IMG/VR virus record: IMGVR_UViG_3300008050_000036
Location: 9,606 to 73,605 of that record
From: a virus
Reading direction: 5' to 3' (one strand)
Length of the DNA: 64,000 bases
The notes beneath the pieces were generated by a model. The model searched no databases. It was not told the origin of the DNA and saw only the letters and a program-made list of their open reading frames with translations. The translations under genes and the position numbers were made by a program. Of this stretch, positions 7,680-60,023 are shown piece after piece (position 1 is the first letter of the stretch; every line of letters starts with the position of its first letter).

Positions 7680-7680
7680 G

Positions 7681-27597: not shown

Positions 27598-27610
27598 TTT
27601 TTTCAACTCC

Positions 27611-28945: not shown

Positions 28946-28970
28946 TAAACTGCTTGACTTAGTGTTATGG

Positions 28971-28978
28971 TATTTAAG
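28971..28978 (-). promoter_or_regulatory. Putative archaeal TATA box for the protease-capsid operon
   Basis: CTTAAATA lies 26-33 nt upstream of ATG 28945 with no RBS, consistent with a leaderless archaeal transcript. A similar CCTTAAAG lies about 23-30 nt upstream of ATG 47009. Confidence 0.45.
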
Positions 28979-34590: not shown

Positions 34591-36405
34591 TTAATCAATG
34601 CCTAAACGATTATCTATGTCCTTAATTTTTCTATCCACATTAGATATTCCCGGTGGGTCTAAATCCCTTGCATCACCTTTACTTTGCCCAAACTTAGTAG
34701 AACCACCCCATGCTTTCTTTTTATGGTCCGGCGACCTACCACTACCCTTTCTATGTAATGCGTTTTGGTTCAACCCTATACTACGTAGTGGTGGTAATTC
34801 CGTTCCCATTGTGGTTCGCAATGAACCCGAAATAGGAACAGAACCATGAATAGGGTCAGTGACATTCCTTTTCATAATATCCATCATTGAAGGTGGCAAT
34901 ACCCATTCGCTTGTTTGAACTGGGGTTGGGCCTCCGCCATGCTGACCTGAAGGCATAGGTGGCCCCTGTCCTCCCTGTTCGGGTGGTGCGGCTGGTGGGG
35001 GTGGTGCTTCTTTGTAATCAAATCTTAAACCAGCCACTTGTTCATCACGGAGGTTAGCCTCATAGCCCGCTTGTTTCATTTGCATCATGTTTCTAATTTG
35101 CATTTCATCCTTACGCATAAGCAAAATCTCATCTTCTTCTTCATGTGGTGTCAAATCAATAGTCCATTCCGTGATTTGTAATGCTTCAAGTAATAGAGGG
35201 AATAATCTAAAATTATACATATTTTGACTGGCGGCTAAAGTGCGGTTTGTCACTACAATTTGCATACCTTCGTTATTCAAACCACCGCCCGATACATCAT
35301 TCATAAACACATTAGAAATACCGTAAAACGATGAAATGCGTTGGCGTATGTCGTCTTTGATGGGGATATACTGCAATTCTTCCAGTGTGTCCATCATACG
35401 GACATATTCAATGCCCCCACGCCCACTTTCTGTTTCAACCCCAATTGTAGGTATGTGTTGAGGGTCACGCTCAAGATGTTCCTGTATGTTTCGTGCCGTT
35501 CTCTCCACCGTTTCAAGATTGGATGATTTGATAACCATTACACCTCTTGGCATTCTGCGCTTTTGATATGCTGCATATACATAATTATCCATAGCAATTA
35601 GAGTATTGACTTGTCGCCATAATGTAGCAACGGGTGAACGGCCATATAATTTAGATGGCGACCATTTACTCAAATGTATTACTTCGCCTTCGGTATAGAC
35701 CTGCCCTTTACCTACACCTGCAAGATTCATATAATGAATAGGCACAACAGGCAAACCTGTTTTTGGGCATTTTTCATCTTTATCACTTGTGCGGAATGAC
35801 CTATCTAATAGACTGGTATATTGTTTTCCTCCCCTTATGCCCCGCTTATCACTAACAATACGCATAAAAATTGGGTCTGCTCTTGTAATTTCTTTTATTC
35901 TGTAAAATTGCGGTTTGCCTGAAGTAGGGTCCACAAAGTATTCTTTGGTGAGAATAATGTAGGCATCATCAACGATATTCAAGTCCATTTCAATTTCACG
36001 CAATACTTCAAGAAAAGATTGACCCATTCGGTTGTCATGCTCAAGCAATACCTTTGCATATTCTAATTGTCCTTTGTCTGCGGGGCGCACTTCACCTTCA
36101 CATTCAATACAATTATCCACTTCTTTTTGGTATTCTGTTTCGCATTCCCTACACTTTACCACAAAATTAGATTTCCAATCCCACCCTTTACGGAATGTTT
36201 CGGTAGCCAAATGGTTAAGAATAGAGCGTAATACTAAGCATTCATAAGCCGCAGCGTATAGTGCAGGTATTGTAATTCCCTGTAATAATGCCGGTTCTTG
36301 CACACCACTGGTGAACAAAGGCATTTCAGGGGTTGGTGTGCTATGGCGTTCCATATCCACCCCAAGAGCAGAAAAGAGCCGTTCAATTCGCTTTTTATCA
36401 ACCAT
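34591..36405 (-). CDS. Portal protein
   Basis: VIHLSKWSPSKLYGRSPVATL, RMPRGVM, RQRISSFYGISNVFMND..GGLNNEGMQ are portal motifs. Follows the terminase. Confidence 0.9.
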   Translation of the reverse strand: MVDKKRIERLFSALGVDMERHSTPTPEMPLFTSGVQEPALLQGITIPALYAAAYECLVLRSILNHLATETFRKGWDWKSNFVVKCRECETEYQKEVDNCIECEGEVRPADKGQLEYAKVLLEHDNRMGQSFLEVLREIEMDLNIVDDAYIILTKEYFVDPTSGKPQFYRIKEITRADPIFMRIVSDKRGIRGGKQYTSLLDRSFRTSDKDEKCPKTGLPVVPIHYMNLAGVGKGQVYTEGEVIHLSKWSPSKLYGRSPVATLWRQVNTLIAMDNYVYAAYQKRRMPRGVMVIKSSNLETVERTARNIQEHLERDPQHIPTIGVETESGRGGIEYVRMMDTLEELQYIPIKDDIRQRISSFYGISNVFMNDVSGGGLNNEGMQIVVTNRTLAASQNMYNFRLFPLLLEALQITEWTIDLTPHEEEDEILLMRKDEMQIRNMMQMKQAGYEANLRDEQVAGLRFDYKEAPPPPAAPPEQGGQGPPMPSGQHGGGPTPVQTSEWVLPPSMMDIMKRNVTDPIHGSVPISGSLRTTMGTELPPLRSIGLNQNALHRKGSGRSPDHKKKAWGGSTKFGQSKGDARDLDPPGISNVDRKIKDIDNRLGID

Positions 36406-37672
36406 TGATTATATCCTCCAACCAAGAATCTAAAGTATCAATAGGCACATTCCATGCTTTGAGTAATGTGGTTTGGTGTTGTAAGTCGGCATGTTGAAAT
36501 GCTAATATGCGACCCGCATTTTCATTTCCTTCAAGAGAAGCAAGAATTAAATGGGCTTCGGTTTTCTTTTTATTCAAAAATGGCAAAGCGAGATTTGCTG
36601 CCTTTATCACGGCTTGGTCGCCCTCAATCACAAATTGCTTGCCCTCCCACATAATACCCTCTACACCCAATTCCCTTTTTAGCACAACGGTATAATCTTC
36701 TGCTCGCTTTGAATTAAAAGGTAAAAATAAACGAGGTGAACCAGTGGGTGACATTTCCACCCTACCTTCAACCTCCCATAAATTACCAATAAAGGAGTCA
36801 TATTCTTTTAAGAAAAGTGGGGGTTTATTTGTGCCATAATATAATGTCCTGTCGTCATTTTTAGTGCCTTTACCTACTACTTTAAGGTCATATAAATAGC
36901 CATAGGCTTTTATCAATGAAGCAACTTCTTGTGTAGTGCCTTTTACCCCATATGAACTAATGGTTTGGGCATTCATGTGACCGTTTTTTGTTAAAACCTC
37001 ATTACATGCCTTAAGGATGGTTCGCTCTCGCCTACTTATCCTATTTTCAGCATTAAGGCGCATATCCCATGTTTTCCAAATCTCATCCACTTCTTCATCA
37101 GTATTGGCTTTCTTTAGAGCCACTATGGTTTGGCGTAATGGTAATTCTAAACGGTCAGGGTATTTAGCCAATAAATTATAATCGTTATCTTGAAGGCGTA
37201 AAGTAATTTCATCATTATCATACCACCATTCATATTGCTTCAAAATAGCCCGTTGTTCAGCACGTAATAATGCTAATACACTTGGTATAATCTCATGTTC
37301 ACCACCTTTTTCTAATAATTCTACTAATTTTTCACCCCTTATACCGAAAGTGTCTTTGAAGTATGTTTTTGATAATTGGGGCGGAATAGGGGGTGCATCG
37401 GCAATAACACCGGGTTGAGTGGGTGTGCTTTGTTGTGCATTACCTTGTAATCCAGTTATGTCAGAACCTTTAGTGGCTTGAGATGGTAAAGGAGTATTGT
37501 CTTGACCCTGCGACTCTTGTTGGTTGTTCATATCTTCCATAGCCTGTGTCAATTCTTTTTCTTTTTGTTGAACCTTCAATGAAGCGGGGTCAGTTCCTCC
37601 GCCCGTTGGTAATAACTTCACCAAAGAATCATTTATTGTTTTTATGTCCGGATTCCATTTTATTTGTTTCAT
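36398..37672 (-). CDS. Protein with winged-HTH-like segment and degenerate LAGLIDADG-like domain
   Basis: FIGNLWEVEGRV..PRLFL...LKRELGVEGI...LALPFLNKKKTEA resembles a single LAGLIDADG domain. ATGA overlap with the terminase gives start 37672. Confidence 0.55.
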   Translation of the reverse strand: MKQIKWNPDIKTINDSLVKLLPTGGGTDPASLKVQQKEKELTQAMEDMNNQQESQGQDNTPLPSQATKGSDITGLQGNAQQSTPTQPGVIADAPPIPPQLSKTYFKDTFGIRGEKLVELLEKGGEHEIIPSVLALLRAEQRAILKQYEWWYDNDEITLRLQDNDYNLLAKYPDRLELPLRQTIVALKKANTDEEVDEIWKTWDMRLNAENRISRRERTILKACNEVLTKNGHMNAQTISSYGVKGTTQEVASLIKAYGYLYDLKVVGKGTKNDDRTLYYGTNKPPLFLKEYDSFIGNLWEVEGRVEMSPTGSPRLFLPFNSKRAEDYTVVLKRELGVEGIMWEGKQFVIEGDQAVIKAANLALPFLNKKKTEAHLILASLEGNENAGRILAFQHADLQHQTTLLKAWNVPIDTLDSWLEDIING

Positions 37673-39099
37673 TCCGAACCACCCCACCCTAATCTTTTAG
37701 TCCATGCTTCGGCATCCAACATAACTATATTATCTCTATACTCTTTTGTTGCTTGAACTGCTAATGCTAATGCAATTACTGTGTCATCGTGCTTGCCGAG
37801 CGACTCCATCTTACCGTTTGGCAACAATGTGAACATTGACAACTCATTTAAGAGGTTATCCATGTGTCGGCGTGTTGCGCCTTCATCTTTGTATGGTAAT
37901 GCCAAATGCCGTTGTTCGAAATGTAATTGTAAAGTGTGCATTACTGCTTCTTTACGCATACGGCTCATAGTGAATGGTTTTATGGGTAAATCACTTATTT
38001 CTTTTAATACTTGATGAAATGCTTGAGCGAAGTTATTTGTTTCTAATTCAATAATAACTGGGTTATAGCGGGCATTCAATTCAATAACTTTGTCAATTTG
38101 AGAACTAAAGTCCATCCCCTTTTCGTGGTGCATCCATACCACCCGTTTATGGCGGTTAGCATCCATAGCAATAACAACCATACAAGTGTAATCGGCTTTT
38201 CTATCAGGGCTAATCGCAGGGTCCCACCCAATATAATAATTAACTTGTTCATCATCATCACCATCCATAAGAGCGTTGAACTCCAAAGCCCTGCTGGTAT
38301 CTTTACAAGACTCTAACATATCTTCAGGGAATAAACTCGATTCACTGGCTATCGGCTTACATAAGTATTCTCTTGTGAAAGCAATAGAAGTCATTTCGCC
38401 CCTACGAGTCTGCAAGGCTTCTAAAGACCAGCGTTCAGGCCAAAGTGGATTGCCACTTTTTTCATCAATGGCGGGATATTCCCCCACCCAATAACCTTTC
38501 AAACTCCTTAATTCTTGGTAAAGGTCAGTATATGAAAAAGGTGTTCCTACAATACATAATTGTGCGGTGTGGTGAAGCACTGGTAAAAGGGCAGTATAGA
38601 ACCAAGTAGCAATATGGGCTAATTGTGTAGCGGCTTCGCTTGAAAGTATATCGTCAAGCACTACAATGTCGGGGTGCGCCCCACGAACCGCTTTACCCAC
38701 AGACATAGCATGAATACTGGATTTATTAGTGAACTTGAACTTCTGTTTATTCCAACCTCTTTTTGGTTTAAGGTGCGCTAAAGCAGGAATAGACATTATC
38801 ATTTCATCCATTTTAGCCATGTGTTCAATAGACTGGTGCTGACTGTGTGAAAAGAAAAGCACTTCTGTTCCGGGGTTATAGGCTAATTTCCATAACAAAT
38901 AACATCTAAAAAAAACGGATTTGCCGTGGTCGCGGCTCGCTATAACGCATACTTTGGTATTGTTTTCTGCCGCATCAAACCATTCTTTATGAAAAGAAGC
39001 CAACTGAAAGGCACAAATATCTTCAAAAAAGTATTGAAAATCACGCCGCCCCATATCCCAATCTACTTTATTGGTGAGGTCTAAAACAGCATCCGACAT
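37669..39099 (-). CDS. terL: Terminase large subunit
   Basis: Walker A ASRDHGKS, Walker B IVVLDDIL, coupling motif VGTP, nuclease IGWDPA and HDDTVIALALA. Confidence 0.95.
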   Translation of the reverse strand: MSDAVLDLTNKVDWDMGRRDFQYFFEDICAFQLASFHKEWFDAAENNTKVCVIASRDHGKSVFFRCYLLWKLAYNPGTEVLFFSHSQHQSIEHMAKMDEMIMSIPALAHLKPKRGWNKQKFKFTNKSSIHAMSVGKAVRGAHPDIVVLDDILSSEAATQLAHIATWFYTALLPVLHHTAQLCIVGTPFSYTDLYQELRSLKGYWVGEYPAIDEKSGNPLWPERWSLEALQTRRGEMTSIAFTREYLCKPIASESSLFPEDMLESCKDTSRALEFNALMDGDDDEQVNYYIGWDPAISPDRKADYTCMVVIAMDANRHKRVVWMHHEKGMDFSSQIDKVIELNARYNPVIIELETNNFAQAFHQVLKEISDLPIKPFTMSRMRKEAVMHTLQLHFEQRHLALPYKDEGATRRHMDNLLNELSMFTLLPNGKMESLGKHDDTVIALALAVQATKEYRDNIVMLDAEAWTKRLGWGGSE

Positions 39100-45361: not shown

Positions 45362-45739
45362 TCAAAATATAACCCTTACACTATTCCCACAAAGGGGGCA
45401 TTCATAATACGGTTCAACGCCTCCCGTTGCCTTTCTTGCCACTTTTTTCATTGGGTAATTGTGACAATTAGCGCAATCAACCTTGTTTGAATGTGGTCGT
45501 GGCATTTGAGCCATCAAGTGTTCTTGTTCATCTTCACCTTTCAGCACAGACCAGCCTATGCGGGATGCTCGGTCATTTGACTTCTTTTTATCAGAATCAA
45601 ACGCCAATTTATCTTTATGGTGTTCACCTTGCTCAAAATCTCGGTCACGGTTTGCTGTATCGGTTTCATCTTTACAAGTAGGGCAAAGGCCGCTTTCACA
45701 CTCCCTACATTCTTCATTACAATCTTCACATTTAGCCAT
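45362..45739 (-). CDS. Two-module Zn-finger protein with internal tag (SRIGWSVLK)
   Basis: MAKCEDCNEECRECESGLCPTC...SNDRASRIGWSVLKG...CANC...CPLC. Start re-assigned to 45739. Confidence 0.75.
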   Translation of the reverse strand: MAKCEDCNEECRECESGLCPTCKDETDTANRDRDFEQGEHHKDKLAFDSDKKKSNDRASRIGWSVLKGEDEQEHLMAQMPRPHSNKVDCANCHNYPMKKVARKATGGVEPYYECPLCGNSVRVIF

Positions 45740-45741
45740 CT

Positions 45742-45882
45742 TCAATCCCTCTCCGTTGTTCCGCAAGTTCGGCATCTGCGTGTGCCATCTTTTCTTTCAA
45801 CCATGCGTTTATTATCACAGCATTGGTCTTTCACCACAGACCAACCTGTGCGGAATGCTCGGTCATTGGACTTTTCGGTCAT
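45742..45882 (-). CDS. Tagged Cys-rich micro-protein (46 aa; not in ORF track)
   Basis: Hand translation MTEKSNDRAFRTGWSVVKDQCCDNKRMVERKDGTRRCRTCGTTERD. ATGA overlap upstream. Confidence 0.7.
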   Translation of the reverse strand: MTEKSNDRAFRTGWSVVKDQCCDNKRMVERKDGTRRCRTCGTTERD

Positions 45883-46022
45883 AGAATACCCCCCCAACAA
45901 TCGTCACCGCAACATTCAGAACACATCCCACATTCTAAACAAGAAGCATCTTCATCACAATCAGGACATTTTCTCGCTTTTGCTTTCACCACAGCCCAAC
46001 CTATGCGGAATGCTTCACCCAT
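45879..46022 (-). CDS. Tagged Cys-rich micro-protein (47 aa; not in ORF track)
   Basis: Hand translation MGEAFRIGWAVVKAKARKCPDCDEDASCLECGMCSECCGDDCWGGIL. GGGGGTG RBS upstream. Confidence 0.7.
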   Translation of the reverse strand: MGEAFRIGWAVVKAKARKCPDCDEDASCLECGMCSECCGDDCWGGIL

Positions 46023-46024
46023 CT

Positions 46025-46306
46025 TCAAGCACCCCCTTTTGGTATGCAATCAGGATTAGCACAAGCACGATTTCTGCTCGGCCCTTGTGGTAATCCACAT
46101 CTATTACAATTCCATGTCCCTACCTTTCCTTTTCCTGTTTTGGGGTCTGTTCCGTGAGGATGACCTTTCACCACAGCCCAACCTGTGCGGAATGCTTTGC
46201 TAACATCACACTTCGGGCAATAAGATTCAGAAATACCACCGACACCACCCCCTCTATGGGTTTGGGTCATTGGCCCTTTACATTTTCTGCACACCTTTTC
46301 ACCCAT
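46025..46306 (-). CDS. Two-module Zn-ribbon protein with internal tag (AFRTGWAVVK)
   Basis: MGEKVCRKC...CPKCDVSKAFRTGWAVVKG...CNRC...CANPDC. Start re-assigned to 46306. Confidence 0.7.
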   Translation of the reverse strand: MGEKVCRKCKGPMTQTHRGGGVGGISESYCPKCDVSKAFRTGWAVVKGHPHGTDPKTGKGKVGTWNCNRCGLPQGPSRNRACANPDCIPKGGA

Positions 46307-47009
46307 CTTCAAGCACCCCCGCATCAGCCAAAGCCTTACGCATAACTCGCCATTCATCAGGCGATTTCTCGGAGAAATGGGCTTGAATAACCGTAAGAAC
46401 TGATACTTGTTCATTAGAACCTATACTTTCAGCCTTTTCGATGTATTCGGCAATATCTGTTAATGTATCGCGTATTTCGCGGTGCATTTTTACGGCGGTG
46501 TCTAATCCTCTATAATCCAGTATGCCTTCGTCATTTCTTTCTTCTTCAAGCATACTTACATGAGAATTGAATAAAGAATTGAGGCGTTGGAGGTTATTTT
46601 CGGTTTGTATCATAGCCCCTCGCACACTACTCAAAGCGGCTGGCAATACCTCCATTTCCACTTGCCGTTGGATAATGGGTGCTGTGTGCATTTCAATGTG
46701 GTGTTCTACATTACTTGAGGTCATTTCCAAATCAAGTGCCATATCAGCAGCACTAACCAAACCATTCATTACGGCTTCCTCAATGTTAGCCCTTTCAGGG
46801 TGTGTGCATAAAGGGCATTGTGAATTACTATTATTATGATATTCACCGGAATGTCGCCTCATATGACGGTGAGCAGTGCCTTCTGCCCATATTTTATTAG
46901 CATCTAAATCAACTACATCTAAAACACCAGTGCGTATGCGTTCTTCGTAGCCATCCCGTTCAGGGTGCATACAAAAGGGACAATTGCGCCTTGTCTTACG
47001 ACCTACCAT
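46299..47009 (-). CDS. Duplicated CxxC-HP Zn/HTH protein with coiled coil; possible terminase small subunit
   Basis: CPFCMHPER...HMRRH and CPLCTHPER...HIEMH repeats, then a helical oligomerisation-like region. TerS role is inference. Confidence 0.5.
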   Translation of the reverse strand: MVGRKTRRNCPFCMHPERDGYEERIRTGVLDVVDLDANKIWAEGTAHRHMRRHSGEYHNNSNSQCPLCTHPERANIEEAVMNGLVSAADMALDLEMTSSNVEHHIEMHTAPIIQRQVEMEVLPAALSSVRGAMIQTENNLQRLNSLFNSHVSMLEEERNDEGILDYRGLDTAVKMHREIRDTLTDIAEYIEKAESIGSNEQVSVLTVIQAHFSEKSPDEWRVMRKALADAGVLEDG

Positions 47010-47047: not shown

Positions 47048-47245
47048 CTATTTTTTGGTATGAACATTACAAAATTGACCGTTCCCCATCTTACCATTCC
47101 TACACCTTTTACCACTTTTAGTAATCGCTACGCAAACCGTTGGTGTTTCGTCATCAACTACTGGTGGTTGTATTTTAGGGGGTTCAATATACTGAACTGG
47201 TTGATAGGCAGGGTATTGGTAATTGTTAATACCGAAAGGCGGCAA
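47048..47245 (-). CDS. Small protein with C-terminal C3H Zn knuckle
   Basis: CVAITKSGKRCRNGKMGNGQFCNVH. Confidence 0.65.
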   Translation of the reverse strand: MPPFGINNYQYPAYQPVQYIEPPKIQPPVVDDETPTVCVAITKSGKRCRNGKMGNGQFCNVHTKK

Positions 47246-47486
47246 ACTGCCGGACCGCCAGCGTAATAGTGAGTATTAAACCAAAAAACAAAGCCATCAT
47301 TTCACTTGTTCCTAAAGAGGGTCCTTTCCAAAGTAAAACGGTGAAGGTAAAGAGCATAAATGCAAGAATATAAATCATAGTAGCCCCTTCAACAAGCATT
47401 TTATTTGGGCTTAATAAATCAACAGTCGCACTCGACCAACTAATTTCCCCTTGAACGGCAGAATCATTTTTGTTATCATTTTTCAT
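47226..47486 (-). CDS. Small two-TM membrane protein
   Basis: IYILAFMLFTFTVLLW and MMALFFGLILTITLAV. GAGGTGA RBS. Confidence 0.75.
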   Translation of the reverse strand: MKNDNKNDSAVQGEISWSSATVDLLSPNKMLVEGATMIYILAFMLFTFTVLLWKGPSLGTSEMMALFFGLILTITLAVRQFAAFRY

Positions 47487-47495
47487 ATTTTCACC

Positions 47496-48170
47496 TCAAA
47501 GTATGGCTGCCCCTTTAGCGGCCATTCCTACACCTTGCCCTACCGTAGCACCAAAACCACCTTGTTGTTGCACTGCATTACCCATCATGCCCCCTATTAA
47601 ATTACCAAAGAAACCCGGTTGTTGTTGTGGATTCATTAACTGTTGTTGTAAAGCCCCTTGTTGGTGCGCTTGTAAAAACATTTGTTGTTGCTGTTGGTTG
47701 TTGTTTAATGTCTGTTGTGCAGAACTTTGCACTTTTTGTAATGTCAAAGCGAGGTTCTCAGGAGATAGTGTCGCTAAATTAGAAGGTAGGGAATTACCAT
47801 CTAATGTTATTTTACCGTCTGAATCAGTAATAAAACTCACACTCTTAAAGAACTCTTTAATTGAAAGCATCATTACTTCCCCTACTAAATCCATAACCAT
47901 AGCCATATTTTGACTCATCATAAATTGAGCCATTGGGTCATAGAGAGCAAGTAATTGAGCCGTAGCCACGATTGGGTCATTAGCGGCTTGTTGCATCATG
48001 GGGTTTTGTGCTTGTTGCATCATACCAAGACCCCCCATACCACCTTGTTGCATTCCATAGCCGCCACCATAGCCTTGTTGCATTCCATAGCCATTCTGCT
48101 GCGCCGCTAAATTGGGCGCACCAAATTGTTGCGTTTCTTGTGTTTTATTTCCTCCAAAAAGCCAGCCCAT
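47496..48170 (-). CDS. Gln/Gly/Met-rich protein with N-terminal MGWLFGG
   Basis: GYGMQQ repeats, poly-Q stretches, glycine-zipper-like C-terminus. AGGTGA RBS. Confidence 0.8.
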   Translation of the reverse strand: MGWLFGGNKTQETQQFGAPNLAAQQNGYGMQQGYGGGYGMQQGGMGGLGMMQQAQNPMMQQAANDPIVATAQLLALYDPMAQFMMSQNMAMVMDLVGEVMMLSIKEFFKSVSFITDSDGKITLDGNSLPSNLATLSPENLALTLQKVQSSAQQTLNNNQQQQQMFLQAHQQGALQQQLMNPQQQPGFFGNLIGGMMGNAVQQQGGFGATVGQGVGMAAKGAAIL

Positions 48171-48181
48171 ATTATTTTCAC

Positions 48182-49081
48182 CTACTGTTGTGTTGCTGCT
48201 AACATTTGTTGTGTTGCATCAACCGGAACCACGCCTGACATTTTTTGTTGTTGTTGCATCTGTTCCATTTGTAAAGCCCTCAAATCAAAAGTGATTGTCA
48301 CTAAATCAGCCACCCCTGATACGGGGTTCGGGTGTTGCGTGAGGGTCACACCCTTTGAGTATTGTGCGTCTTGTTGCACCATTTTGAAAAATTGTTCATA
48401 TTTCGCTAAAGACTCAGGGGTTGAACGATTGCGTTTTTGACTTTTTATCATTCCGGGTATTTTCAAAAAGCGTGTTCCTTTAGATACGGGGCGGCTAAAT
48501 CCTTCAGAAGCCAATTCCTGTTCTTCTATAACTACGCGTAAAGTGTGGTAAATGTGTAAATGTGCCGGACAAAGTGTGCTATTCATTTCATCCCCAAAAT
48601 CCCCATGTGTGCGGGCGTGTGGTTTTTTGGCGTTCCCTGTTTCTGCATCAAACCAGTATATATCGCTTAAAGATAAGCCAGTGCGTTCATCACTAATATG
48701 AGAGTAAGCATTGTCGCCTTCTAAAAATCGGCGCACATCAACGCCACAACACGCACATTCATGGGCGGCATTGTAGCGATATACTTTGAAAAAGCCCAAA
48801 TTGAGGTTAGGTGGCCGTAAAACCTTTCTTAGAATCTTTATATTCTTTCTTCGGGCTTTAGCAGGGTTTTTGATGTTGGTTTTTAACTTAACTTCAACAG
48901 TGGGTATCATTTCTTCTTCCCCACTTACAATTCCCGTTGAGCCAGCCGAAGCCATTTCTGCCCTTTGTTGAGCCTTTAGCAATTCGTAGGCCACTCCTGT
49001 TTGTGTGGCTAAGACACGTAATTCATCATCGGTAGCACCCCGTAAGGATATGGCCCCGCCGCCCAAAAAATTAGGTATCAT
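48182..49081 (-). CDS. Zn-binding protein (CACC...CPAH) in the GTPase operon
   Basis: HECACCG...TLCPAHLH and a Gln-rich tail. GGGGAGAGG RBS. Confidence 0.75.
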   Translation of the reverse strand: MIPNFLGGGAISLRGATDDELRVLATQTGVAYELLKAQQRAEMASAGSTGIVSGEEEMIPTVEVKLKTNIKNPAKARRKNIKILRKVLRPPNLNLGFFKVYRYNAAHECACCGVDVRRFLEGDNAYSHISDERTGLSLSDIYWFDAETGNAKKPHARTHGDFGDEMNSTLCPAHLHIYHTLRVVIEEQELASEGFSRPVSKGTRFLKIPGMIKSQKRNRSTPESLAKYEQFFKMVQQDAQYSKGVTLTQHPNPVSGVADLVTITFDLRALQMEQMQQQQKMSGVVPVDATQQMLAATQQ

Positions 49082-49132
49082 GTCCTCTCCCCTATAATCC
49101 TGTCAAGGCTAACACTATGAAAAGACTTGCGG

Positions 49133-49858
49133 TTAAATCTTATCTATTGTATCTATTATTGCCCGTTCCACATTCAAACCATATTGGGCTGCAATAGCCT
49201 CAACATTGGTTGGTATGGCTGCCCTTCGTAGTCGCCGTAATTCATTTTGAAAGGGCAAAACCATTTTGTGTTGGCGTTTTAGCCCTAAATCCCACATATG
49301 TTGGGCTTCATTATCCCACCACAAATCCATTTTATTGATTAACAGACATACTACCTTTGGTTTGTATTTTTTGGCCTTACGGCGCATTTTACGACTAAAC
49401 GTGCTTGGGTATTTTTTACCCACTATAATATCCACCAAATACTGAAAACCGGCTACCATTTCAGCCGCCACATAGGGAGATTGTAATATGCGTTCATCAA
49501 TCACATAAAATATAACTTGGCGGTCTTGGTCTATTATATCTTCGGCCCACATGTTCCAGTATTGGGTTTGACCCCCAATATCTGTTGAAGTAATAGGGAT
49601 TCGCTCACCCTTCCACCGTATTTGTTTTTTAGAACCATGAGGCATTTTGAAAGCCCCATGCTTTACTGGGTGGCTGGTTCGCAATTGAAGGGGTATTGGG
49701 TCAATATCACCCGGAACAGTCATATATTGGTCTAAAGTAGTCTTACCTGCAAGACTTGAACCATAAATACCAACTCTATACGGGCGCAATATCCTATAAA
49801 TCAAATTGGCTACTTGGGCCGTTCCCATTAGTATATGACCCGCGAATAACCATGACAT
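49133..49858 (-). CDS. Small Ras-superfamily GTPase, Arf/Sar1-like
   Basis: G1 GSSLAGKTT, G2 RT, G3 DIGGQ followed by YWNMW, VIFYVID strand, G4 NKMD, G5-like IAAQYGLNV. Hydrophobic N-terminal helix. Confidence 0.85.
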   Translation of the reverse strand: MSWLFAGHILMGTAQVANLIYRILRPYRVGIYGSSLAGKTTLDQYMTVPGDIDPIPLQLRTSHPVKHGAFKMPHGSKKQIRWKGERIPITSTDIGGQTQYWNMWAEDIIDQDRQVIFYVIDERILQSPYVAAEMVAGFQYLVDIIVGKKYPSTFSRKMRRKAKKYKPKVVCLLINKMDLWWDNEAQHMWDLGLKRQHKMVLPFQNELRRLRRAAIPTNVEAIAAQYGLNVERAIIDTIDKI

Positions 49859-49864
49859 TCAATT

Positions 49865-50086
49865 TCACTTCCCCCTTAGCCAAGTCCATATACTTGTAGG
49901 GCTTATATCTAACCATAAATCCAATCCTAACTGAATAAAAAATGAAAGGCTAACACCACCCACAAACGCCAATACCACTTTAAGCGACCAAGCCGCCCTC
50001 TCCATGCGTCTATCATACGCATTTTCAGCAAGTATAGCCGACATTGCTTCTGCTTGCCTTTCCTGAGCAGTATTAAACGGCCACAC
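49865..50086 (-). CDS. Small single-TM membrane protein
   Basis: VVLAFVGGVSLSFFIQLGL. AGGTGG RBS. Confidence 0.7.
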   Translation of the reverse strand: MWPFNTAQERQAEAMSAILAENAYDRRMERAAWSLKVVLAFVGGVSLSFFIQLGLDLWLDISPTSIWTWLRGK

Positions 50087-50098
50087 GATAAAGCCACC

Positions 50099-50578
50099 TT
50101 AAACCTGTATAAGAGGGATTTCTTCATTAGGGGCTTCGGGTGAATCATCTTGAAAGGATGGTTGGGTTATAGGTAGGCCGAAAGTCTGCCCGTTGCCTGT
50201 CATTGGTTGTTGTTGATAATACTTCATTTGGCCCATTTGACTTTTGCGGGCGCGGCGTTCTTGGAGGCGTTCTTGGCCTCTTTGCCACTTATCGAAGCGG
50301 GCTTCTTGAGAGAACTCGGCTCGCATAGCCAAAGAATCACGAATACCTCCTACATGAAATAGCACCATAGCCACGCATAAGAAACCAAAAGTCACTAATC
50401 CGTATTGTAATCCCATTTCGGCGGCACTTGCAGAAGGCAAATACCAATTCATATGTGATACCGATACCGCCACACCAGTTAAAAGTGATTGCCAAAGCAG
50501 CATAGCAATTAAGTTAATATCAATTCTGTTTTCATCCATTTTGGGGTAGGTCATTTGTCTTTGTGGTGCTTGCATCAT
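50099..50578 (-). CDS. Two-TM membrane protein with cytoplasmic coiled coil
   Basis: LIAMLLWQSLLTGVAVSV and YGLVTFGFLCVAMVLF, then QEARFDKWQRGQERLQERRAR. GGAGG RBS. Confidence 0.8.
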   Translation of the reverse strand: MMQAPQRQMTYPKMDENRIDINLIAMLLWQSLLTGVAVSVSHMNWYLPSASAAEMGLQYGLVTFGFLCVAMVLFHVGGIRDSLAMRAEFSQEARFDKWQRGQERLQERRARKSQMGQMKYYQQQPMTGNGQTFGLPITQPSFQDDSPEAPNEEIPLIQV

Positions 50579-50580
50579 GT

Positions 50581-50715
50581 TTAATCCTCCGGTTGGTTAT
50601 TAAAATACTCTTTTAGGACATGAGATACAAAAGAAGATTTGCTCTCACGACCCCTTGCGGCTTCTAATTTGGCGAAAATATCATCGGACACAATCACCGA
50701 TACATGGCGGCTCAT
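50581..50715 (-). CDS. Ribbon-helix-helix (CopG/Arc-like) DNA-binding protein (44 aa; not in ORF track)
   Basis: Hand translation MSRHVSVIVSDDIFAKLEAARGRESKSSFVSHVLKEYFNNQPED: alternating beta strand, helix, G-x-x-S turn, helix. Confidence 0.75.
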   Translation of the reverse strand: MSRHVSVIVSDDIFAKLEAARGRESKSSFVSHVLKEYFNNQPED

Positions 50716-50739: not shown

Positions 50740-50783
50740 TTATGAGGGTTATGATTATTTATGGTGTTATAGTGCGACTTTAC

Positions 50784-51308
50784 ATGGCGGGTCCTAATCT
50801 CACCGAAGCGGTAATGGCTATGCGCTCGTTTCATGCAGCAAAAAACGCTTCACCCGCTAACCCTAATTTGGTGTCGTCATGGGTTCAGCGTCAAACAAAT
50901 GCTGACATTGCACCTAATTTCTCACACAATGCCGCTATTGCACTACTACACTACTACCAGCACCCACTATATGGTAATTCCAGTAATTTACCATCAACGG
51001 CTCAAGGGTGGCTACCTTTAATGCAACCCGCCGAAAACATACTATCTAATGAAGAATCGTGGATAGATACCCAAATTACGGCTAATATCAATACAATGCT
51101 AACCCGTATTTTCACTACTGATGATATGTGGCTTCACCAATGGGGTGCAATAAACAACTTCCCGCCTGATACTCCTTTGGCTTTCATAATCAATTTTTTA
51201 ATTAACCGCTTGATGAATTGTGAGGGTGCTAATGGGCCAAGTGGTGCAGGGGGAATATCTTTCACCGAACATATATTACCATCAGGTGATGATAACTCCC
51301 TACCTTAA
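50784..51308 (+). CDS. Hypothetical protein (one of two plus-strand genes)
   Basis: Start re-assigned to MAGPNL at 50784. Converges on 51305..52513 with overlapping TTAA stops. Confidence 0.75.
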   Translation: MAGPNLTEAVMAMRSFHAAKNASPANPNLVSSWVQRQTNADIAPNFSHNAAIALLHYYQHPLYGNSSNLPSTAQGWLPLMQPAENILSNEESWIDTQITANINTMLTRIFTTDDMWLHQWGAINNFPPDTPLAFIINFLINRLMNCEGANGPSGAGGISFTEHILPSGDDNSLP

Positions 51309-52513
51309 AATCCTTCATCAACCTTTCGTGGTTGTAATGATTTGGCTCTATTTACGATAGAAACAGATGGATTTATTTGAGGTCCAGTGTAAAAGGCATT
51401 ACCTTGAGGGTCATATCTCAATTGCCCACCCCCCCTTAACTCCATTGTAGCACCTTTCTTTGAACCAATATGAGGGAAAAAGGAACTCATATTACTTTTG
51501 CGTTGCTTTTTCCCTTCAAAACAAGAGGGACAGTTATTTTCTTCACAACTATCATCTTTCACCGAAGGGTCTGATGCAGGACAAGCAAATATGTTAGGCC
51601 CCGCTGCCCCAACACCAGTAGCAGATATTTGGGGGTGTTCTTCAACCATCTCACGGAGATAGCGGGGTATAGTAGGCAAACCTAATGTTCGGTTCATATC
51701 ATCATCCATACTTTGCCCAATCCACGGCAAACTTGCACTAACTTCCATATTTTCGGGTATTGCATCATCCCATCCTCTTGCATCAACCACATTTCTTAAT
51801 GCCCTATGTTCAGCAGTAGGCATCCATGATTGTGTTTTTAGTGGGTGTTCGTTAAGAATGTTGCGGGCTATATCAAAATCCATAGCAATATGTTCTTCCC
51901 CTTGTTTTTCTCCCGCATCACTATGTCTAAAATAAGGCGTTCCGTAATCCCATGTTTTGTGAGGTAATGTAGAGGCCATAGCAGAAGCATACTTTAATTG
52001 TTCTTCATGTCCTTCATTCATCAATAACGCTACGGCGTTGCGCCATAAGGCTTTATTTTTTGAATTATACTTAAAATTAGGAGTGTTGTCATTATAACAT
52101 ATATTACAAGTAGCACCTTTTTTGTCCCTATAACAACCACCCATATTACATAAAGCGTTAGGTAGGCCGTGTGTTGCACCATACATTTTATCCGTAAATC
52201 CATATCCTCCCGTTTTGGCGTTTAATCCTGTCATTATGTTAGCCGACATTCTGTTCTTAGGGCCTGAAGGCCATTTCGGGATTTGGGTTATTTCTTCGAC
52301 AGGCCAATGAACTTGTAAGTCTTTTAGCCAATCATCAATTTCCTCCTTACCTTCATTTGTTTTAGTCCAATTTTTAATTTGGCCCCCTGCCCCTACTTTT
52401 GTTGTGCCTCCTAAAGCCACGGGGTCCCACCAACCCACTTTCCCCGGTTGCCCTAATGGATAATCAAGCCCTTTAACAAGAGCCTTAGCAAGAATCTCTA
52501 CACCCAAAAACAT
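51305..52513 (-). CDS. Gp88-like Cys-rich protein (divergent)
   Basis: HGLPNALC...CNICY...YFRHSDAGE...SWMPTAE...IPENMEVSAS...FACPAS...CEENNCPSCF follows the phage gene-product-88 motif order, recalled from family knowledge. Confidence 0.6.
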   Translation of the reverse strand: MFLGVEILAKALVKGLDYPLGQPGKVGWWDPVALGGTTKVGAGGQIKNWTKTNEGKEEIDDWLKDLQVHWPVEEITQIPKWPSGPKNRMSANIMTGLNAKTGGYGFTDKMYGATHGLPNALCNMGGCYRDKKGATCNICYNDNTPNFKYNSKNKALWRNAVALLMNEGHEEQLKYASAMASTLPHKTWDYGTPYFRHSDAGEKQGEEHIAMDFDIARNILNEHPLKTQSWMPTAEHRALRNVVDARGWDDAIPENMEVSASLPWIGQSMDDDMNRTLGLPTIPRYLREMVEEHPQISATGVGAAGPNIFACPASDPSVKDDSCEENNCPSCFEGKKQRKSNMSSFFPHIGSKKGATMELRGGGQLRYDPQGNAFYTGPQINPSVSIVNRAKSLQPRKVDEGF

Positions 52514-52520
52514 AATTATT

Positions 52521-54155
52521 TCACCTGTTCCTGTTAAAATGCCCTAAAACGGCATCAGCCATTGCCCTTGCTACTAAGGGATTAACGGCATTTCCTATTC
52601 CTCGTTGTGATTGCGCTGCGGTTGTATCGCCTAACTTATAATTCATCGGGAAGTTCCCCAAAGCCAAAACATCTTTTTGACTCAATGGCCCTACTCCTAA
52701 ATGTCCGGGTATATTACTACTGGTTAATGACGACATATGGGTATCTATTGGTTTAGTGCCATGCCATGAATACCCCTTCTTTTCAGAAGTCCACGGCGAG
52801 GGTGTATGCCCGCCACCCCTACCGGGAAATGGTGTGCCATGATGTGTTATATGAGGTTCTGTTAATAATTTTGTGGCAATTTTTGGGTCAATTACTCCAT
52901 TAGCGAGCAAACCTAAAATATAATCAGATTTACTTTCAAAATTATCGTGTTCTTCTTCCTCCATATGGGGCAAAAAGTCTTTTACTGTGTTCCAATTTGA
53001 CCTAAACTTTTGTCCGGGTGCTTCATCAAATGGTCTTTCAATGTCAATAAGTTGGTCTAATCCATAAAATCTATTACGTTGTTGTGCGCTGCCAAAATCA
53101 GCAGCATAAGTAGGCTTGCTTCTTTCTACCATCCGTTTAACCCATGCGGGAGGTTGCTTCCATTTTTGCCGACCTGATGCTAAAATGGGTTCTTTGATAT
53201 TGGGGGTTTGTTCAAAGGCTGATACAAATTGGTTTTTACCTAATTTACGGCGGAGTTCATTCGCAAGGTCAAAGGTATAATTCTGTAATAACATGGTTTG
53301 AGCATGGTCTTTTTCTCCCGGCCTTGCATTACTACTATTGATACATGGTGCTGATTGAGATAAAAATACTGGCCTACCGTCTGCATGGTCTATCATGCGC
53401 CCTGCCAATTCTTTATGTCCTAATTCGCCCTCTCCCTCGCCCAATGTCGCTTCAATTAACTCATGGTCGGGAAAATTGGCTCTAAATCGTTCTGCGGCGA
53501 TTGGGTCATTTTCAACACCAATGCCCGGTTCTAAGCCACTCATCTCTAATCCAACATCAGTGCCACCCCACCCTGAAAATGTAGTATTGCCTACTACATT
53601 ATGGGGGTTTTTTTGTTTTTTGGGGCGGTTCATAAGGTTATGATAAGCAGAATATATTTCAGGGTCTAAATAATCTCGCCCCTTGAGTAAAGTGTCCCAT
53701 GCTATTTCAAACGCATCTTCTGAGGCATAAAAGCCCATTTCACGTGCTTCTTTACCCTCCAATCCGGCAAACTTGCATTTATCCCATTGGTCCAATACTT
53801 GGCGAGCATAAAAATGAAACTCCGTTGGTGGTAATTCAGGCTTACGGCTTGTGACATTATTTTGATAGAACGGGCCGGGTATATCACCTGCAAAATCACG
53901 CAAAGCCGCTTCCAATTCTTCACAACTCATTGCATCATAGCCTTCTATAATTTTTGATTCATAGCCACGGGGTTGAATATCTGATTGCGCCAAGAGATTA
54001 TACCACATTTCCCTTGCTTTACCACAACATGGGTCATTCCCCATGTCTATCTGCTCAAAATCAGGGATAGTATCTTCATCGGGTAATAGAATATCATTAA
54101 CCCGTTCCCGCAAATTACGTGGTTCAATGGCGGAAGCCTCTAAATCACCTACCAT
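52521..54155 (-). CDS. Two-module protein: Cys-containing helical domain, tag linker, C5-cytosine DNA methyltransferase
   Basis: Motif I FSGWGG, II VENDP, IV SAPC, VI FEQTP (ENV variant), VIII AADFGSAQQRNRFY, X IGNAVNP. Preceded by ASEDAFEIAWDTLLKG. Confidence 0.8.
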   Translation of the reverse strand: MVGDLEASAIEPRNLRERVNDILLPDEDTIPDFEQIDMGNDPCCGKAREMWYNLLAQSDIQPRGYESKIIEGYDAMSCEELEAALRDFAGDIPGPFYQNNVTSRKPELPPTEFHFYARQVLDQWDKCKFAGLEGKEAREMGFYASEDAFEIAWDTLLKGRDYLDPEIYSAYHNLMNRPKKQKNPHNVVGNTTFSGWGGTDVGLEMSGLEPGIGVENDPIAAERFRANFPDHELIEATLGEGEGELGHKELAGRMIDHADGRPVFLSQSAPCINSSNARPGEKDHAQTMLLQNYTFDLANELRRKLGKNQFVSAFEQTPNIKEPILASGRQKWKQPPAWVKRMVERSKPTYAADFGSAQQRNRFYGLDQLIDIERPFDEAPGQKFRSNWNTVKDFLPHMEEEEHDNFESKSDYILGLLANGVIDPKIATKLLTEPHITHHGTPFPGRGGGHTPSPWTSEKKGYSWHGTKPIDTHMSSLTSSNIPGHLGVGPLSQKDVLALGNFPMNYKLGDTTAAQSQRGIGNAVNPLVARAMADAVLGHFNRNR

Positions 54156-54255
54156 ATAATCAATCCCTAAAGGTTTGCTTTCAAAAACATTTAGGTTATT
54201 TTAACCAAAAACAATAGTATTGGACCCATAATGTTCAATCCTCAAAGGGTATGTT

Positions 54256-54268
54256 AGGGTTGTCAGCC
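54256..54268 (+). promoter_or_regulatory. 13-bp motif AGGGTTGTCAGCC upstream of the thermosome (copy 2)
   Basis: Identical to 50727..50739. Ends 40-43 nt before ATGs 54308/54311, upstream of TTGATAGG. Confidence 0.55.
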
Positions 54269-54307
54269 ATGCAAGCATTGATAGGCTATGCCGTTTTGCC
54301 CCCATCC

Positions 54308-55879
54308 ATGATGAACGGACCCAATGGACCCATTTTTATTTTGAAGGAAGGAACAGAAAGGAGTCAAGGCAGGAATGCTCAATTGAATAACATAGCAGCG
54401 GCAAGGGCTGTCGCAGATGCAGTAAGAAGCACTTTGGGTCCAAAAGGAATGGATAAAATGCTGGTTGATGAAGGCGGTGATGTGACTATTACTAATGATG
54501 GTGCTACTATCCTTCGTGAAATAGCCATCGACCACCCTGCGGCCAAGATGATTATTGAAGTAGCGCAAACCCAAGAGCAAGAATGCTATGACGGGACAAC
54601 CAGTGCGGTAATCCTTGCGGGTGAATTACTCAAGCGTTCTGAGGAATTGATAGACCAAAATGTTCATCCAACTACAATATGCAAGGGGTATCGTATGGCG
54701 GGCAAATACATACAAAAGTTATTACCCAATTATGAATTACAAGATGTGCCACTAATCAATATCGCCACTACTGCCCTTACTGGTAAATCGGCTGATTCGT
54801 TTAAGGACAATCTCGCAACCATTTGTGTTGAAGTAGTGGAGTTAATTGCAGATAACGGGAATGTTAATCTTGATAATATCAATATAGTGAAAGCGGTAGG
54901 TGGTTCAGGTGAAGATAGTCGCATAATTCATGGTTTGGTTATTGATAAAGACCCCGTTCATTCAGCCATGCCTCTTTTACTACAAGAAACAGAATATCAT
55001 ACAGTAGCCATTATCAATAGTGCGCTCGAAGTTAAACAAACAGAAATGGATGCCAATATCCAAATTACCGACCCAAACCAAATAGAAGCGTTCCTTGCTA
55101 AAGAAGAAGCCTATTTGAAGGGCATTGTGGCTAAAATCATTGAAAGTAAGGCACAAATACTCATCTGTCAGCGTGAAATAGACGATATGGTGAAACATTA
55201 CCTTGCTAAAGCGGGCATCATGGCTCTTGAAAAAGTAAAAACCTCAGACATAGAAAACCTTTCGATTGCTACTGGTGCAGACATTATTAGCAACCTTGAC
55301 GACTTATCCTATGATTCTTTGGGCTTTTGTGCTGAAATGGAGGTTAAGAGGGTTGGTGAACATAATATGACCTTTTTTACTAATCTTCACAAAGATGCCG
55401 TCACATTATTACTTCGGGGTGGCACTGTTCATTATGTTGAAGAAGTAGAACGGGCTTTTGACGATGCGGTAGGTGTTGTATCATTGGCATACAAAGACGG
55501 TGCAGTATTAACTGGTGGGGGTTCAATTCATACTGCTCTTTCACTTAAATTAGATAAATACGCAAAAAATATCACAGGGCGTGAACAAATGGCTATTGAG
55601 GCATTTGCTAAGGCACTTGAAGTAATCCCTCGCACTTTAGCAGAAAACGCTGGTCTTGACCCTGTGGATGAAATGATGCACCTCCGTCAAGCACACAGTC
55701 TTAAAGCGGGCAAACACATGGGTATTGAGATAGAAAATGGCGGCACATGGGATATGCGAATGGCAAATGTGTATGAGCCAAAGCGTGTTATTAGTCAAGC
55801 ATTAAAATCAGCAGTAGAAACGGCCATTATGGTTCTGCGTATTGATGATGTAATATCATCTAAGAAAAAGGGTCAATGA
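54308..55879 (+). CDS. ths: Group II chaperonin (thermosome subunit)
   Basis: [27 protein letters not shown] (GDGTT variant), [36 protein letters not shown]. Confidence 0.95.
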
Positions 55880-59126: not shown

Positions 59127-59422
59127 TCGGGCCACCCCGTTCCGTTGCACATATCGCATTCACGGCCTCTATAATCTCCATCCCCCCGACATTGAGCGCA
59201 AACTACGATTGTTTGCTTTGTTTCAGCATATTCCTTATCGTGAGGGAATAATTGTTCACACTTACCACACCACCAAGCGGCTACTCTCGGATAGCCAAAA
59301 CCAAACGAAGTCCATTCTTGGGTTCTTTTTGAACCACAATTCGGGCAAATGTCATTATTATTGAACTCGGCTACTGGTTCACCCTCTTTGAGTAATTTGA
59401 AGGCTCTATTAAATGCACTCAT
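59123..59422 (-). CDS. Leader-tagged double Zn-ribbon protein (DnaJ-type CxxCxGxG)
   Basis: MSAFNRAFKLLK leader. CPNC, CGKC, CAQCRGDG, CDMCNGTG. Confidence 0.8.
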   Translation of the reverse strand: MSAFNRAFKLLKEGEPVAEFNNNDICPNCGSKRTQEWTSFGFGYPRVAAWWCGKCEQLFPHDKEYAETKQTIVVCAQCRGDGDYRGRECDMCNGTGWPE

Positions 59423-59568
59423 TTACCAGTCACCCAACCAATGGCCCATACAAAGGGCAAACATACCAACAATATAGGTATTACGACTAATACAATGCCC
59501 AAAAGAGCAAAATCACCCATCATTCCCCACAAACCATTGGTTTTTGTTTGGTGGGTTTTATGGGTCAA
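59419..59568 (-). CDS. Small membrane peptide (untagged)
   Basis: TTGA overlap start. FALLGIVLVVIPILLVCLPFVWAIGW hydrophobic stretch. Confidence 0.55.
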   Translation of the reverse strand: MTHKTHQTKTNGLWGMMGDFALLGIVLVVIPILLVCLPFVWAIGWVTGK

Positions 59569-60023
59569 ACATCTCCCCCCTCTCTTGGGGCATCGTGAAA
59601 CCACGTTAATGCCGTTTCATCCCACGGCCCCCAAGTGTTATGCTCAAGCATTTTTTTATTCATTTCATCAACATTGTAGCGTATTATATCGTCTGAATTA
59701 AACCTCCCAAAGAAAGAATACAAAGCCAATGGTAATCTTGTGTCAGTAGAAGGGTCATAAGCCCATTCCATGTGTTCCCCCTCCACTGGTTCACCTTCAT
59801 GCACTTTACCTTCCAAATCACCCATGTAAGTAGTGAAAGCGTGTCCGTATTGCCTACCTTCAATTGGCCCCTGACCAGTCACTTGAGCATGAGCAAGTGA
59901 ATACCCCGGATTTGAACAAACCCATCTCCCTGCTTCCATATAACAATCCCCGTTTCTATTTTCTTCAGGAATATCCCCTTCTGCTTCCTTGAGCAAATCC
60001 CACGCTCTCTCAAATGCGGTCAT
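59565..60023 (-). CDS. Leader-tagged transglutaminase/papain-like (Cys-His-Asp) protein
   Basis: MTAFERAWDLLK leader. GDCY...YGHAF...AYDPS putative triad. Ends WGPWD. Confidence 0.65.
   Translation of the reverse strand: MTAFERAWDLLKEAEGDIPEENRNGDCYMEAGRWVCSNPGYSLAHAQVTGQGPIEGRQYGHAFTTYMGDLEGKVHEGEPVEGEHMEWAYDPSTDTRLPLALYSFFGRFNSDDIIRYNVDEMNKKMLEHNTWGPWDETALTWFHDAPREGGDV

Follow-up and report, generated by a model that had tools for sequence, protein, structure and literature searches.

We describe here a compact block of eight genes built around a small GTPase gene in the IMG/VR virus record IMGVR_UViG_3300008050_000036. The window, by which we mean the whole stretch analyzed, comprises 64 kb (64,000 nucleotides, positions 9,606 to 73,605) of this linear 73.6-kb record, for which CheckV gives a completeness of 69%. 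Judged by its gene content, it is a magrovirus-like tailed archaeal virus. The block occupies window positions 47048 to 50715 and, like almost all long open reading frames (ORFs) of the window, lies on the minus strand; all eight ORFs reported there by a first-pass annotation, made from the letters of the DNA alone, are present. We put forward a tentative reading of the whole, function included: the block may be a membrane cassette of late genes, specific to the virus, that centers on a highly divergent small GTPase of the Arf-like kind.

The block begins with a ribbon-helix-helix (RHH)-like protein of 44 aa (50581-50715). A protein with two transmembrane (TM) segments follows (159 aa; 50099-50578; residues 23-41 and 61-79), which ends in an Arg/Gln-rich C-terminal tail, and then a 1-TM protein (73 aa; 49865-50086; residues 37-55). 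The small GTPase (241 aa; 49133-49858) is next, followed by an orphan Zn-binding protein with a Cys/His motif (299 aa; 48182-49081), a protein rich in Q, G, M, and N (224 aa; 47496-48170; referred to below as the Q/G-rich protein), and a second 2-TM protein, TM86 (86 aa; 47226-47486; residues 34-52 and about 60-84). The last gene encodes a CCCH Zn-knuckle protein (65 aa; 47048-47245). The constant downstream neighbor is p236 (236 aa; 46299-47009), also on the minus strand, with two Cys/His pairs and a DUF7367-like C terminus. The genes are closely spaced: neighbors are 2 to 51 bases apart, except for one pair that overlaps by 20 bases, and p236 follows after 38 bases.

TM segments were called by Kyte-Doolittle hydropathy in 19-residue windows (KD19) with a threshold of ≥1.6. 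This bore out the membrane segments proposed earlier for the 2-TM, 1-TM, and second 2-TM proteins and gave no TM segment for the GTPase. Among the small ORFs of the window accepted as real genes, three of the four TM-like ones lie in the block, a figure that rests on judgment, with minus-strand genes outside the 2567-aa open-ended gene (3-7703) being counted. The sole other accepted small TM-like protein on the window's coding strand is a 61-aa ORF (59419-59604, minus strand; KD19, 3.11).

Most proteins of the block have few matches to named families. The RHH gene is present as an ORF; its assignment is weak, the Pfam match being to a VapB-type antitoxin at an E value of 0.1, below the cut-off, and its family profile having no significant PDB match. 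The 65-aa Zn knuckle matches Pfam DUF5763 below the cut-off (E, 0.002) and, weakly, a PHROG small terminase (E, 0.007), and p236 matches Pfam DUF7367 below the cut-off (E, 1.4e-4) and a PHROG HNH family (E, 0.014). The Zn-binding protein carries the invariant motif ECACCG...NSxLCPAHLHIxHTL after a basic stretch, with a mean column identity of 63%. It has no match in Pfam or PHROG, its family profile has no significant one in the PDB, and the ESM Atlas gave no usable named match; the database holds 155 homologs, and all 120 of those listed are unnamed or "hypothetical." Its AlphaFold2 (AF2) model is unusable (pLDDT, 44.9; pTM, 0.24). An HNH-like nuclease, suggested by eye, was dropped as a candidate: the would-be catalytic His residues vary (H/Y/F and H/Q), and no profile supported it. 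When the GTPase was modeled in complex with the Zn protein, GTP, and Mg, the prediction scored 0.00, a value obtained without controls that speaks neither for nor against binding.

The Q/G-rich protein contains 39 Q, 32 G, 21 M, 15 N, and 0 R in its 224 residues. Its central domain is conserved, its C-terminal tail resembles a glycine zipper (G189xxxG193xxxG197), and its family profile has no significant PDB match. Similar N termini are found on several proteins of the block, namely, M-S-W-L-F-A-G in the GTPase, M-G-W-L-F-G-G in the Q/G-rich protein, M-I-P-N-F-L-G-G in the Zn protein, and M-W-P-F in the 73-aa protein; within the Q/G family, M1, G2, and F5 are conserved.

The GTPase contains a G1 motif (GSSLAGKTT, residues 33-41), a G3 motif (DIGGQ, 93-97) followed by W101 and W104, and NKMD (175-178). 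These motifs are as the first-pass annotation had described them and are far beyond chance. A database search returned 83 homologs at an E value of ≤0.001, down to 43% identity and almost all unnamed. In an alignment of the window GTPase with 37 of them (A1; 38 sequences, 45 to 73% identity), the invariant residues are G33, G38, K39, T41, D93, G96, W104, and N175-K176-M177-D178. The G1, DxxG, and NKxD motifs do not vary in the second alignment, A2, either. Between G1 and G3 lies a family-specific invariant motif, TVPGDxxPIPxxxRTxH (T47-V-P-G-D51..P54-I-P56...R60-T61.H63). An insert of 16 to 25 residues is present in switch I/interswitch, and a basic insert of ~20 residues (about 150-168) precedes strand 5. 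The AF2 model has a Ras-superfamily fold with a pLDDT of 71.9; residues 48-56 and 60-90, which make up switch I/interswitch, are at a pLDDT of <50.

A wider collection of 176 unique sequences was assembled from three sets (window type, P0085 type, and the P0096 and P0090 types pooled; these lineages are named for a representative GTPase). G1, DxxG, and NKxD are present in 176/176, and a Trp at D+11 is present in 173/176, where the three Trp-less sequences, like some of the DxxGH/R calls, may be regex mis-hits. A search of 1.84 billion representative proteins with the family profile found only 82 at an E value of ≤0.001, and the family is therefore isolated. Many fragments were listed in that search, and 13 full-length sequences were used (P0084 and 12 of 14 retrieved). 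From its motifs, the protein is almost certainly a real GTPase.

At the N terminus, the AF2 model places a helix (residues 2-24, pLDDT 45-68) directly before strand 1. With a hydrophobicity of about 0.65, it has a hydrophobic moment (muH) of 0.3 to 0.5 on the HeliQuest scale, with a median of 0.37. Its maximum KD19 is about 0.9 to 1.6 in 17 window-type sequences, below the usual TM threshold of 1.6. The hydrophobic helix noted in the first-pass annotation thus stands as to its hydrophobicity; its amphipathicity is modest only, and it does not reach the TM threshold. As an anchor, the modeled helix could be of the in-plane or of a weak TM type, and the GTPase is probably membrane associated.

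The gene order around the GTPase was compared across IMG/VR loci of four lineages: window type (54 loci), P0085 type (127, 80 kept), P0090 type (4), and P0096 type (140, 80 kept). Alignments A3 to A5 draw on 15 of the 54 window-type loci, spanning identity levels. Among these 54 closest loci, homologs were found for the RHH-like protein in 52, the 2-TM protein in 52, the 1-TM protein in 54, the Zn protein in 54, the Q/G-rich protein in 54, TM86 in 53, the Zn knuckle in only 23, p236 in 53, and p141, a further downstream neighbor, in 52. The order RHH, 2-TM, 1-TM, GTPase, Zn, Q/G-rich, 2-TM, and p236 is colinear in 54/54, as far as each contig extends. The P0085-type lineage (37% identity) has the same order; the GTPase, Zn protein, and p236 were found in all 80 of its loci, TM86 in 66, the 2-TM protein in 58, and the Q/G-rich protein in 54. 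In the P0090-type lineage, the Zn protein is present in 4/4 loci, with a Q/G-rich ORF downstream.

The block of the P0096-type lineage (29% identity) consists of a 165-aa 2-TM protein, a 73-aa hydrophobic protein, the GTPase, a 226-aa Zn protein with CxxCG...CxxHxxxH after a basic stretch, and a 237-aa Q/G-rich protein. In hhalign comparisons between the window and P0096 types, the GTPases scored 100% and the Q/G-rich proteins 89.9% (E, 1.7e-6; 102 columns). The Zn proteins scored a weak 9.4%, and the TM proteins did not match; the 2-TM pair (0.6%) has no detectable homology and shares position only. The RHH-like protein was undetected in the P0085-type and P0096-type lineages, and TM86 and p236 were undetected in the P0096-type lineage. 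The two blocks differ in position: that of the window lies upstream of the terminase gene, and that of the P0096 type lies between the genes for the protease, major capsid protein (MCP), and SAP protein on one side and the tail tube gene on the other, colinear in 80/80 loci. The SAP protein, 164 aa long with a C-terminal SAP DNA-binding domain (E, 4.4e-10; e.g., L082:5487-5978), is encoded in most of the 80 loci, where its gene separates that of the capsid from the cassette.

A five-gene core (2-TM, 1-TM, GTPase, Zn, and Q/G-rich) is thus kept together as a block while changing place between lineages. This is good evidence for a joint function of the five proteins and answers the question of co-conservation raised by the first-pass annotation. 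Every related locus that extends to the region carries the block. No relative turned up when viral contigs were scanned with P0087, P0130, or P0098, and no phage record in INPHARED gave a tblastn match to the GTPase. Within the records searched, the GTPase was shown to be restricted to magrovirus-like contigs.

The assignment of the window to an archaeal virus, made earlier without database searches, agrees with its tailed-virus gene set. Pfam matches identify the large terminase (37669-39099), portal (34591-36405), prohead protease (27611-29044), SU10-type MCP (26440-27606), tail tube protein (19574-21799), a C5 DNA methylase (52521-54155), a GP88-like protein (51305-52513), and, on the plus strand, a group II chaperonin (54251-55879; 555 bits). 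A thermosome subunit in a tailed-virus genome is described in the text of PMC5434244 as a hallmark of magrovirus groups A and D. A related 106-kb magrovirus-like contig (L055) with a GTPase of 51% identity is part of a single-cell genome titled uncultured Candidatus Poseidoniales archaeon, which points to a host among the Poseidoniales, archaea that abound in the ocean, whether as an infected cell or as another host link. An 8-kb contig (L056) with the same GTPase was binned in a Parvibaculum metagenome-assembled genome, most likely a binning error. DNA near-identical to the window was found in marine metagenome runs; seven of those listed hold at least half of its words, and one of these may be its source. 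None of the sequencing runs listed with such DNA is an RNA run.

Further genes of the window were noted. Downstream of the tail tube gene, a 568-aa protein (16770-18476, minus strand) has three hydrophobic segments and a weak TraG_N match (E, 0.002); its possible roles are those of a tape measure or of a tail protein that penetrates the membrane. A 188-aa gene (50742-51308) lies on the opposite, plus strand between the GP88-like and RHH genes, 26 bases from the RHH start, and has a homolog in the same place and orientation in 27/54 related loci. Two short ORFs with 10 Cys each, p137 and p129 (45362-46414), overlap the end of p236, and the position of p129-like genes varies among related loci.

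The affiliation of the GTPase was examined with profile and structure searches. The Arf switch II signature is wDxGGQxxxRxxW. In the viral family, the Asp, the Gly, and the D+11 Trp (173/176) are kept, the Gln is found in 105/176, and the leading Trp is absent. In a search of the PDB, profile A1 best matched GerdArfR1 (8oun; 27.9 bits; E, 1.5e-5), in two pieces that cover the N-terminal helix with G1 and switch II. Switch II is nearly identical, with D-L-G-G-Q-L-H-F-R-N-L-W in GerdArfR1 and D-I-A-G-Q-x-Q-F-R-N-L-W in the viral consensus. Entry 8OUN is presented in 10.1101/2024.02.28.582541 as GerdArfR1, an Asgard ArfR protein. Arl8A/B came next, at an E value of about 0.02, and the 22 matches listed comprise 11 of the Arf family, 3 of Rab33B, and otherwise unrelated P-loop proteins. 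Profile A2 scored GerdArfR1 at 48.9 bits, Rab33B at 35, and Arl3 at 34; Arf-like outliers are among its sequences, which makes this search partly circular. Arf is also the Pfam family matched by most members (20/29 at an E value of ≤1); NCBIfam gave a generic small_GTP domain only (18/29). Four of the weakest representative-search matches, P0145, P0156, P0157, and P0160, have Arf as their best Pfam family (27 to 61 bits), and the named ESM Atlas clusters listed (ranks 15 to 22) carry PF00025 on 17 to 67% of their members. Automated labels on some homologs read "GTPase SAR1 family protein" (P0042) or "Ras family domain-containing protein." The GTPase had no match in PHROGs.

The first-pass annotation had called the protein an Arf/Sar1-type GTPase and had named ordinary non-membrane prokaryotic families as the grouping that would speak against this. 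The best-match tests did not place it with such families, and several of them lean toward Arf. On this comparison of profiles, the GTPase rather likely belongs specifically to the Arf-like side of the superfamily, and we label it Arf-like rather than a member of the Arf family.

Genomes of the host order offer no near relative. Among 151 Poseidoniales genomes searched, the sole full-length GTPase match came from the single-cell genome with the viral contig, with 0/150 in the others. Another 30 had short matches only (≤56 profile positions), nearly all to the P-loop and most in unrelated proteins of ~520 to 620 aa. From this distribution, the GTPase appears not to be recently host derived. An archaeal parallel in design is ArvA of Haloferax, described in PMC10927574 as an Arf-like GTPase with an N-terminal amphipathic helix that drives vesicle formation; the operon also holds, by the same account, ArvB (OapB) and the Zn-ribbon protein ArvC. 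OapB was found in 0/61 Poseidoniales genomes versus 110/251 genomes of the wider phylum. ORFs upstream of OapB genes supplied nine ArvA candidates. These have in common with the viral family a GIYGP..GKTTL motif and an IP-x-E-x-R switch-I motif; they scored 14.8 to 18.8 bits with A1 and 24.4 to 32.8 bits with A2, and their G3 is DTPG. Against ArvA, hhalign gave 95% over 62 columns (A1) and over 119 columns (P0096 type), without a negative control, and such a probability is expected between P-loop GTPases. None of the nine cassette proteins (the eight of the block and p236) matched OapB (PF09846) or the ArvC family in Pfam at an E value of ≤1. What the viral block has in common with ArvABC is mainly its layout, in which a Zn protein comes after an anchored GTPase.

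In the mechanism that we propose, the GTPase would, like Arf, Sar1, ArfR, and ArvA, free its N-terminal helix in the GTP state, and the helix would enter the cytoplasmic membrane of the host. The 2-TM and 1-TM proteins encoded upstream would serve the GTPase as a membrane receptor or activator, and the role of regulator or effector would fall to the Zn protein and to the Q/G-rich protein, whose tail is of the glycine-zipper type. Acting together late in infection, these proteins would cause the membrane to bend, form vesicles, or rupture. Its most likely purpose would be the release of virions from a host of which only the membrane and surface layer need to be breached. In lambda, the lysis genes are just upstream of the terminase genes, and in P2 they lie between head and tail genes. 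Release is favored because the two genome positions of the block mirror these lysis cassettes, because small 1-2 TM proteins with charged tails have general holin-like features, and because no other lysis candidate was recognized among 29 scanned proteins. It is favored also because of the state of knowledge of egress in tailed archaeal viruses, the players of which are called "completely uncharacterized" in a passage of a 2024 review (PMC10791045). We infer an egress function only tentatively. The complete picture, a self-contained GTP-switched membrane-deforming machine in which an Arf-like GTPase, membrane receptors, a Zn regulator, and a low-complexity glycine-zipper effector release virions, is doubtful.

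Several results weigh against this interpretation, beginning with the family assignment. The window GTPase scores 11.1 bits with Pfam Arf (PF00025), against a cut-off of 22.3 (E, 0.27). When 10 distant sequences were tested singly, the cut-off was passed by P0145, P0156, P0157, and P0160 only and missed by P0085, P0087, P0090, P0096, P0098, and P0130. The core viral lineages (P0085, P0087, P0090, P0096, and P0098) have no discriminating Pfam match: P0085 and P0087 have none at an E value of ≤0.01, and P0096 scores higher with Roc (21.3) and MMR_HSR1 (19.1) than with Arf (16.8). The Pfam Arf model is itself unspecific in a six-frame search, exceeding its cut-off in 13/14 control prokaryote genomes. 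Foldseek ranks Rab6, Rab5, and KRas first for the GTPase model (E, 2-8e-4), and on the VIA list the distance from the Arf rows to LokiRagO (12.2), Gtr1 (11.4), and EngA (11.1) is less than or slightly above 1 Z unit. The viral family lacks the Trp found before the G3 Asp in Arf. The residue after DxxG is Q in 105 of the 176 sequences, E in 44, D in 18, H in 8, and R in 1; the Gln is thus replaced by Glu, Asp, or His in ~40%, within all three sets, which hints at a noncanonical or partner-supplied catalytic residue. Switch I/interswitch, the region of the Arf toggle, carries an insert and is modeled at low pLDDT. As for the anchor, the helix of only 10/33 family members is more amphipathic than 95% of shuffles. 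A rival explanation, which concerns ancestry and not function, is that the GTPase is not Arf derived and is instead another small-GTPase offshoot with G-domain inserts or a fast-evolving TRAFAC protein with a convergent switch II. An example of the former is Rup3, a Heimdallarchaeia-specific small-GTPase group with insertions (10.1101/2024.02.28.582541), compared here by description only. The two G-domain inserts of the viral protein and the failure of Foldseek and Pfam to single out Arf for the core lineages fit such an origin; the ArfR best match of A1, with its near-identical switch II and aligned N-terminal helix, and the Arf best matches of P0145, P0156, P0157, and P0160 argue against it, and we consider it rather unlikely.

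As for function, the block lies among morphogenesis genes at both of its genome positions, which fits assembly equally well, and none of its neighbors has homology to holins, endolysins, coats, GTPase-activating proteins, or guanine nucleotide exchange factors. The nine cassette proteins have no match to holin or endolysin families in Pfam or PHROG, and the earlier statement that the window has no recognizable holin or endolysin holds for the 29 proteins scanned (all 29 with Pfam, the first nine with PHROGs), not for every ORF. Assembly at the membrane, or some other membrane takeover, fits the data nearly as well as release. Under the former, the cassette would anchor or time head assembly or DNA packaging at the membrane, with the GTPase as an assembly checkpoint. 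Prohead assembly of T4 starts on the inner membrane. In the window, the block is directly upstream of p236, p141, and p581, onward to the large terminase and portal genes; in the P0096 type it lies between protease-MCP and tail tube genes in 80/80 loci, and p236 follows it in 53/54 window-type and 80/80 P0085-type loci. The block is also seemingly universal in the virus group (54, 127, 4, and 140 loci), as core morphogenesis genes are. No neighbor, however, resembles a scaffold, portal accessory, or terminase subunit beyond the PHROG hints for the 65-aa protein and p236, three small TM proteins with a glycine-zipper tail are more typical of membrane-active cassettes, and we know of no small GTPase in tailed-virus assembly; we consider this explanation unlikely. 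A nonlytic, ArvA-like takeover of the host membrane, for superinfection exclusion, for blocking or hijacking vesicles, or for a membrane-bound replication or assembly compartment, is distinctly improbable. It would account for the Zn protein directly after the GTPase, as the Zn-ribbon protein follows in the ArvA operon, and for the G1 and switch-I motifs common to ArvA candidates and the viral family, and the virus could supply a function missing from a host order in which OapB was found in none of the genomes sampled. Yet A1 scores the ArvA candidates well below GerdArfR1 (14.8 to 18.8 versus 27.9 bits), their G3 is DTPG and not DxGGQ, and no neighbor has a Pfam match to OapB or ArvC. Accessory takeover genes are, moreover, usually variable, and this block is in every locus reaching it.

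If the release reading is true, tailed archaeal viruses would have in this cassette their first known egress system. An Arf-type membrane switch would then also operate outside Asgard archaea and eukaryotes, possibly tied to the Asgard GTPase radiation through ancient gene exchange. The block holds the sole recognizable enzyme among orphan membrane proteins and offers a concrete, expressible handle on the egress question. Among the papers searched, we found no mention of a GTPase in magroviruses; "GTPase" and "GTP" are absent from the main texts, supplements aside, of PMC5434244, PMC11706807, and PMC10160649.

The cassette can be compared with several known systems. Like phage lysis cassettes, it has small 1-2 TM proteins with charged tails beside or inside the late genes, at a position that varies among related viruses. 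It differs from them in that its proteins lack homology to holin and endolysin families, and to our knowledge no lysis cassette has a small GTPase, a Zn protein, or a Q/G-rich protein. Giant eukaryotic viruses such as Mimivirus encode Rab GTPases, which are close copies of host Rabs. The two cases are alike in a virus-encoded Ras-superfamily GTPase; here, however, an Arf-like family without a close cellular counterpart in the sampled hosts is encoded by a prokaryotic tailed virus. The parallel with the ArvABC operon of Euryarchaeota (Haloferax volcanii HVO_3014-3012) lies in a Zn-binding protein that comes after an Arf-like GTPase bearing an N-terminal helix, and ArvA acts on the cytoplasmic membrane; unlike ArvABC, the viral cassette has no OapB/ArvC homolog and contains three TM proteins and a Q/G-rich protein.

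Relative to the Arf family, in which we count eukaryotic Arf, Arl3, Arl6, Arl8, and Sar1 and Asgard ArfR proteins such as GerdArfR1 (8OUN/8OUM), the viral GTPase has the extra switch I/interswitch insert and the basic insert, has no Trp before the G3 Asp, falls below the Pfam cut-off, and keeps the Gln after DxxG in 105/176 sequences. Ideas on how eukaryotic membrane traffic arose give a central place to Arf-type GTPases that have N-terminal anchors. ArfR is described in 10.1101/2024.02.28.582541 as almost exclusive to Asgard archaea, whereas the viral GTPase is that of a Poseidoniales virus. A large viral family with an ArfR-like switch II, in viruses of a different archaeal phylum, widens the Arf picture, whatever its ancestry.

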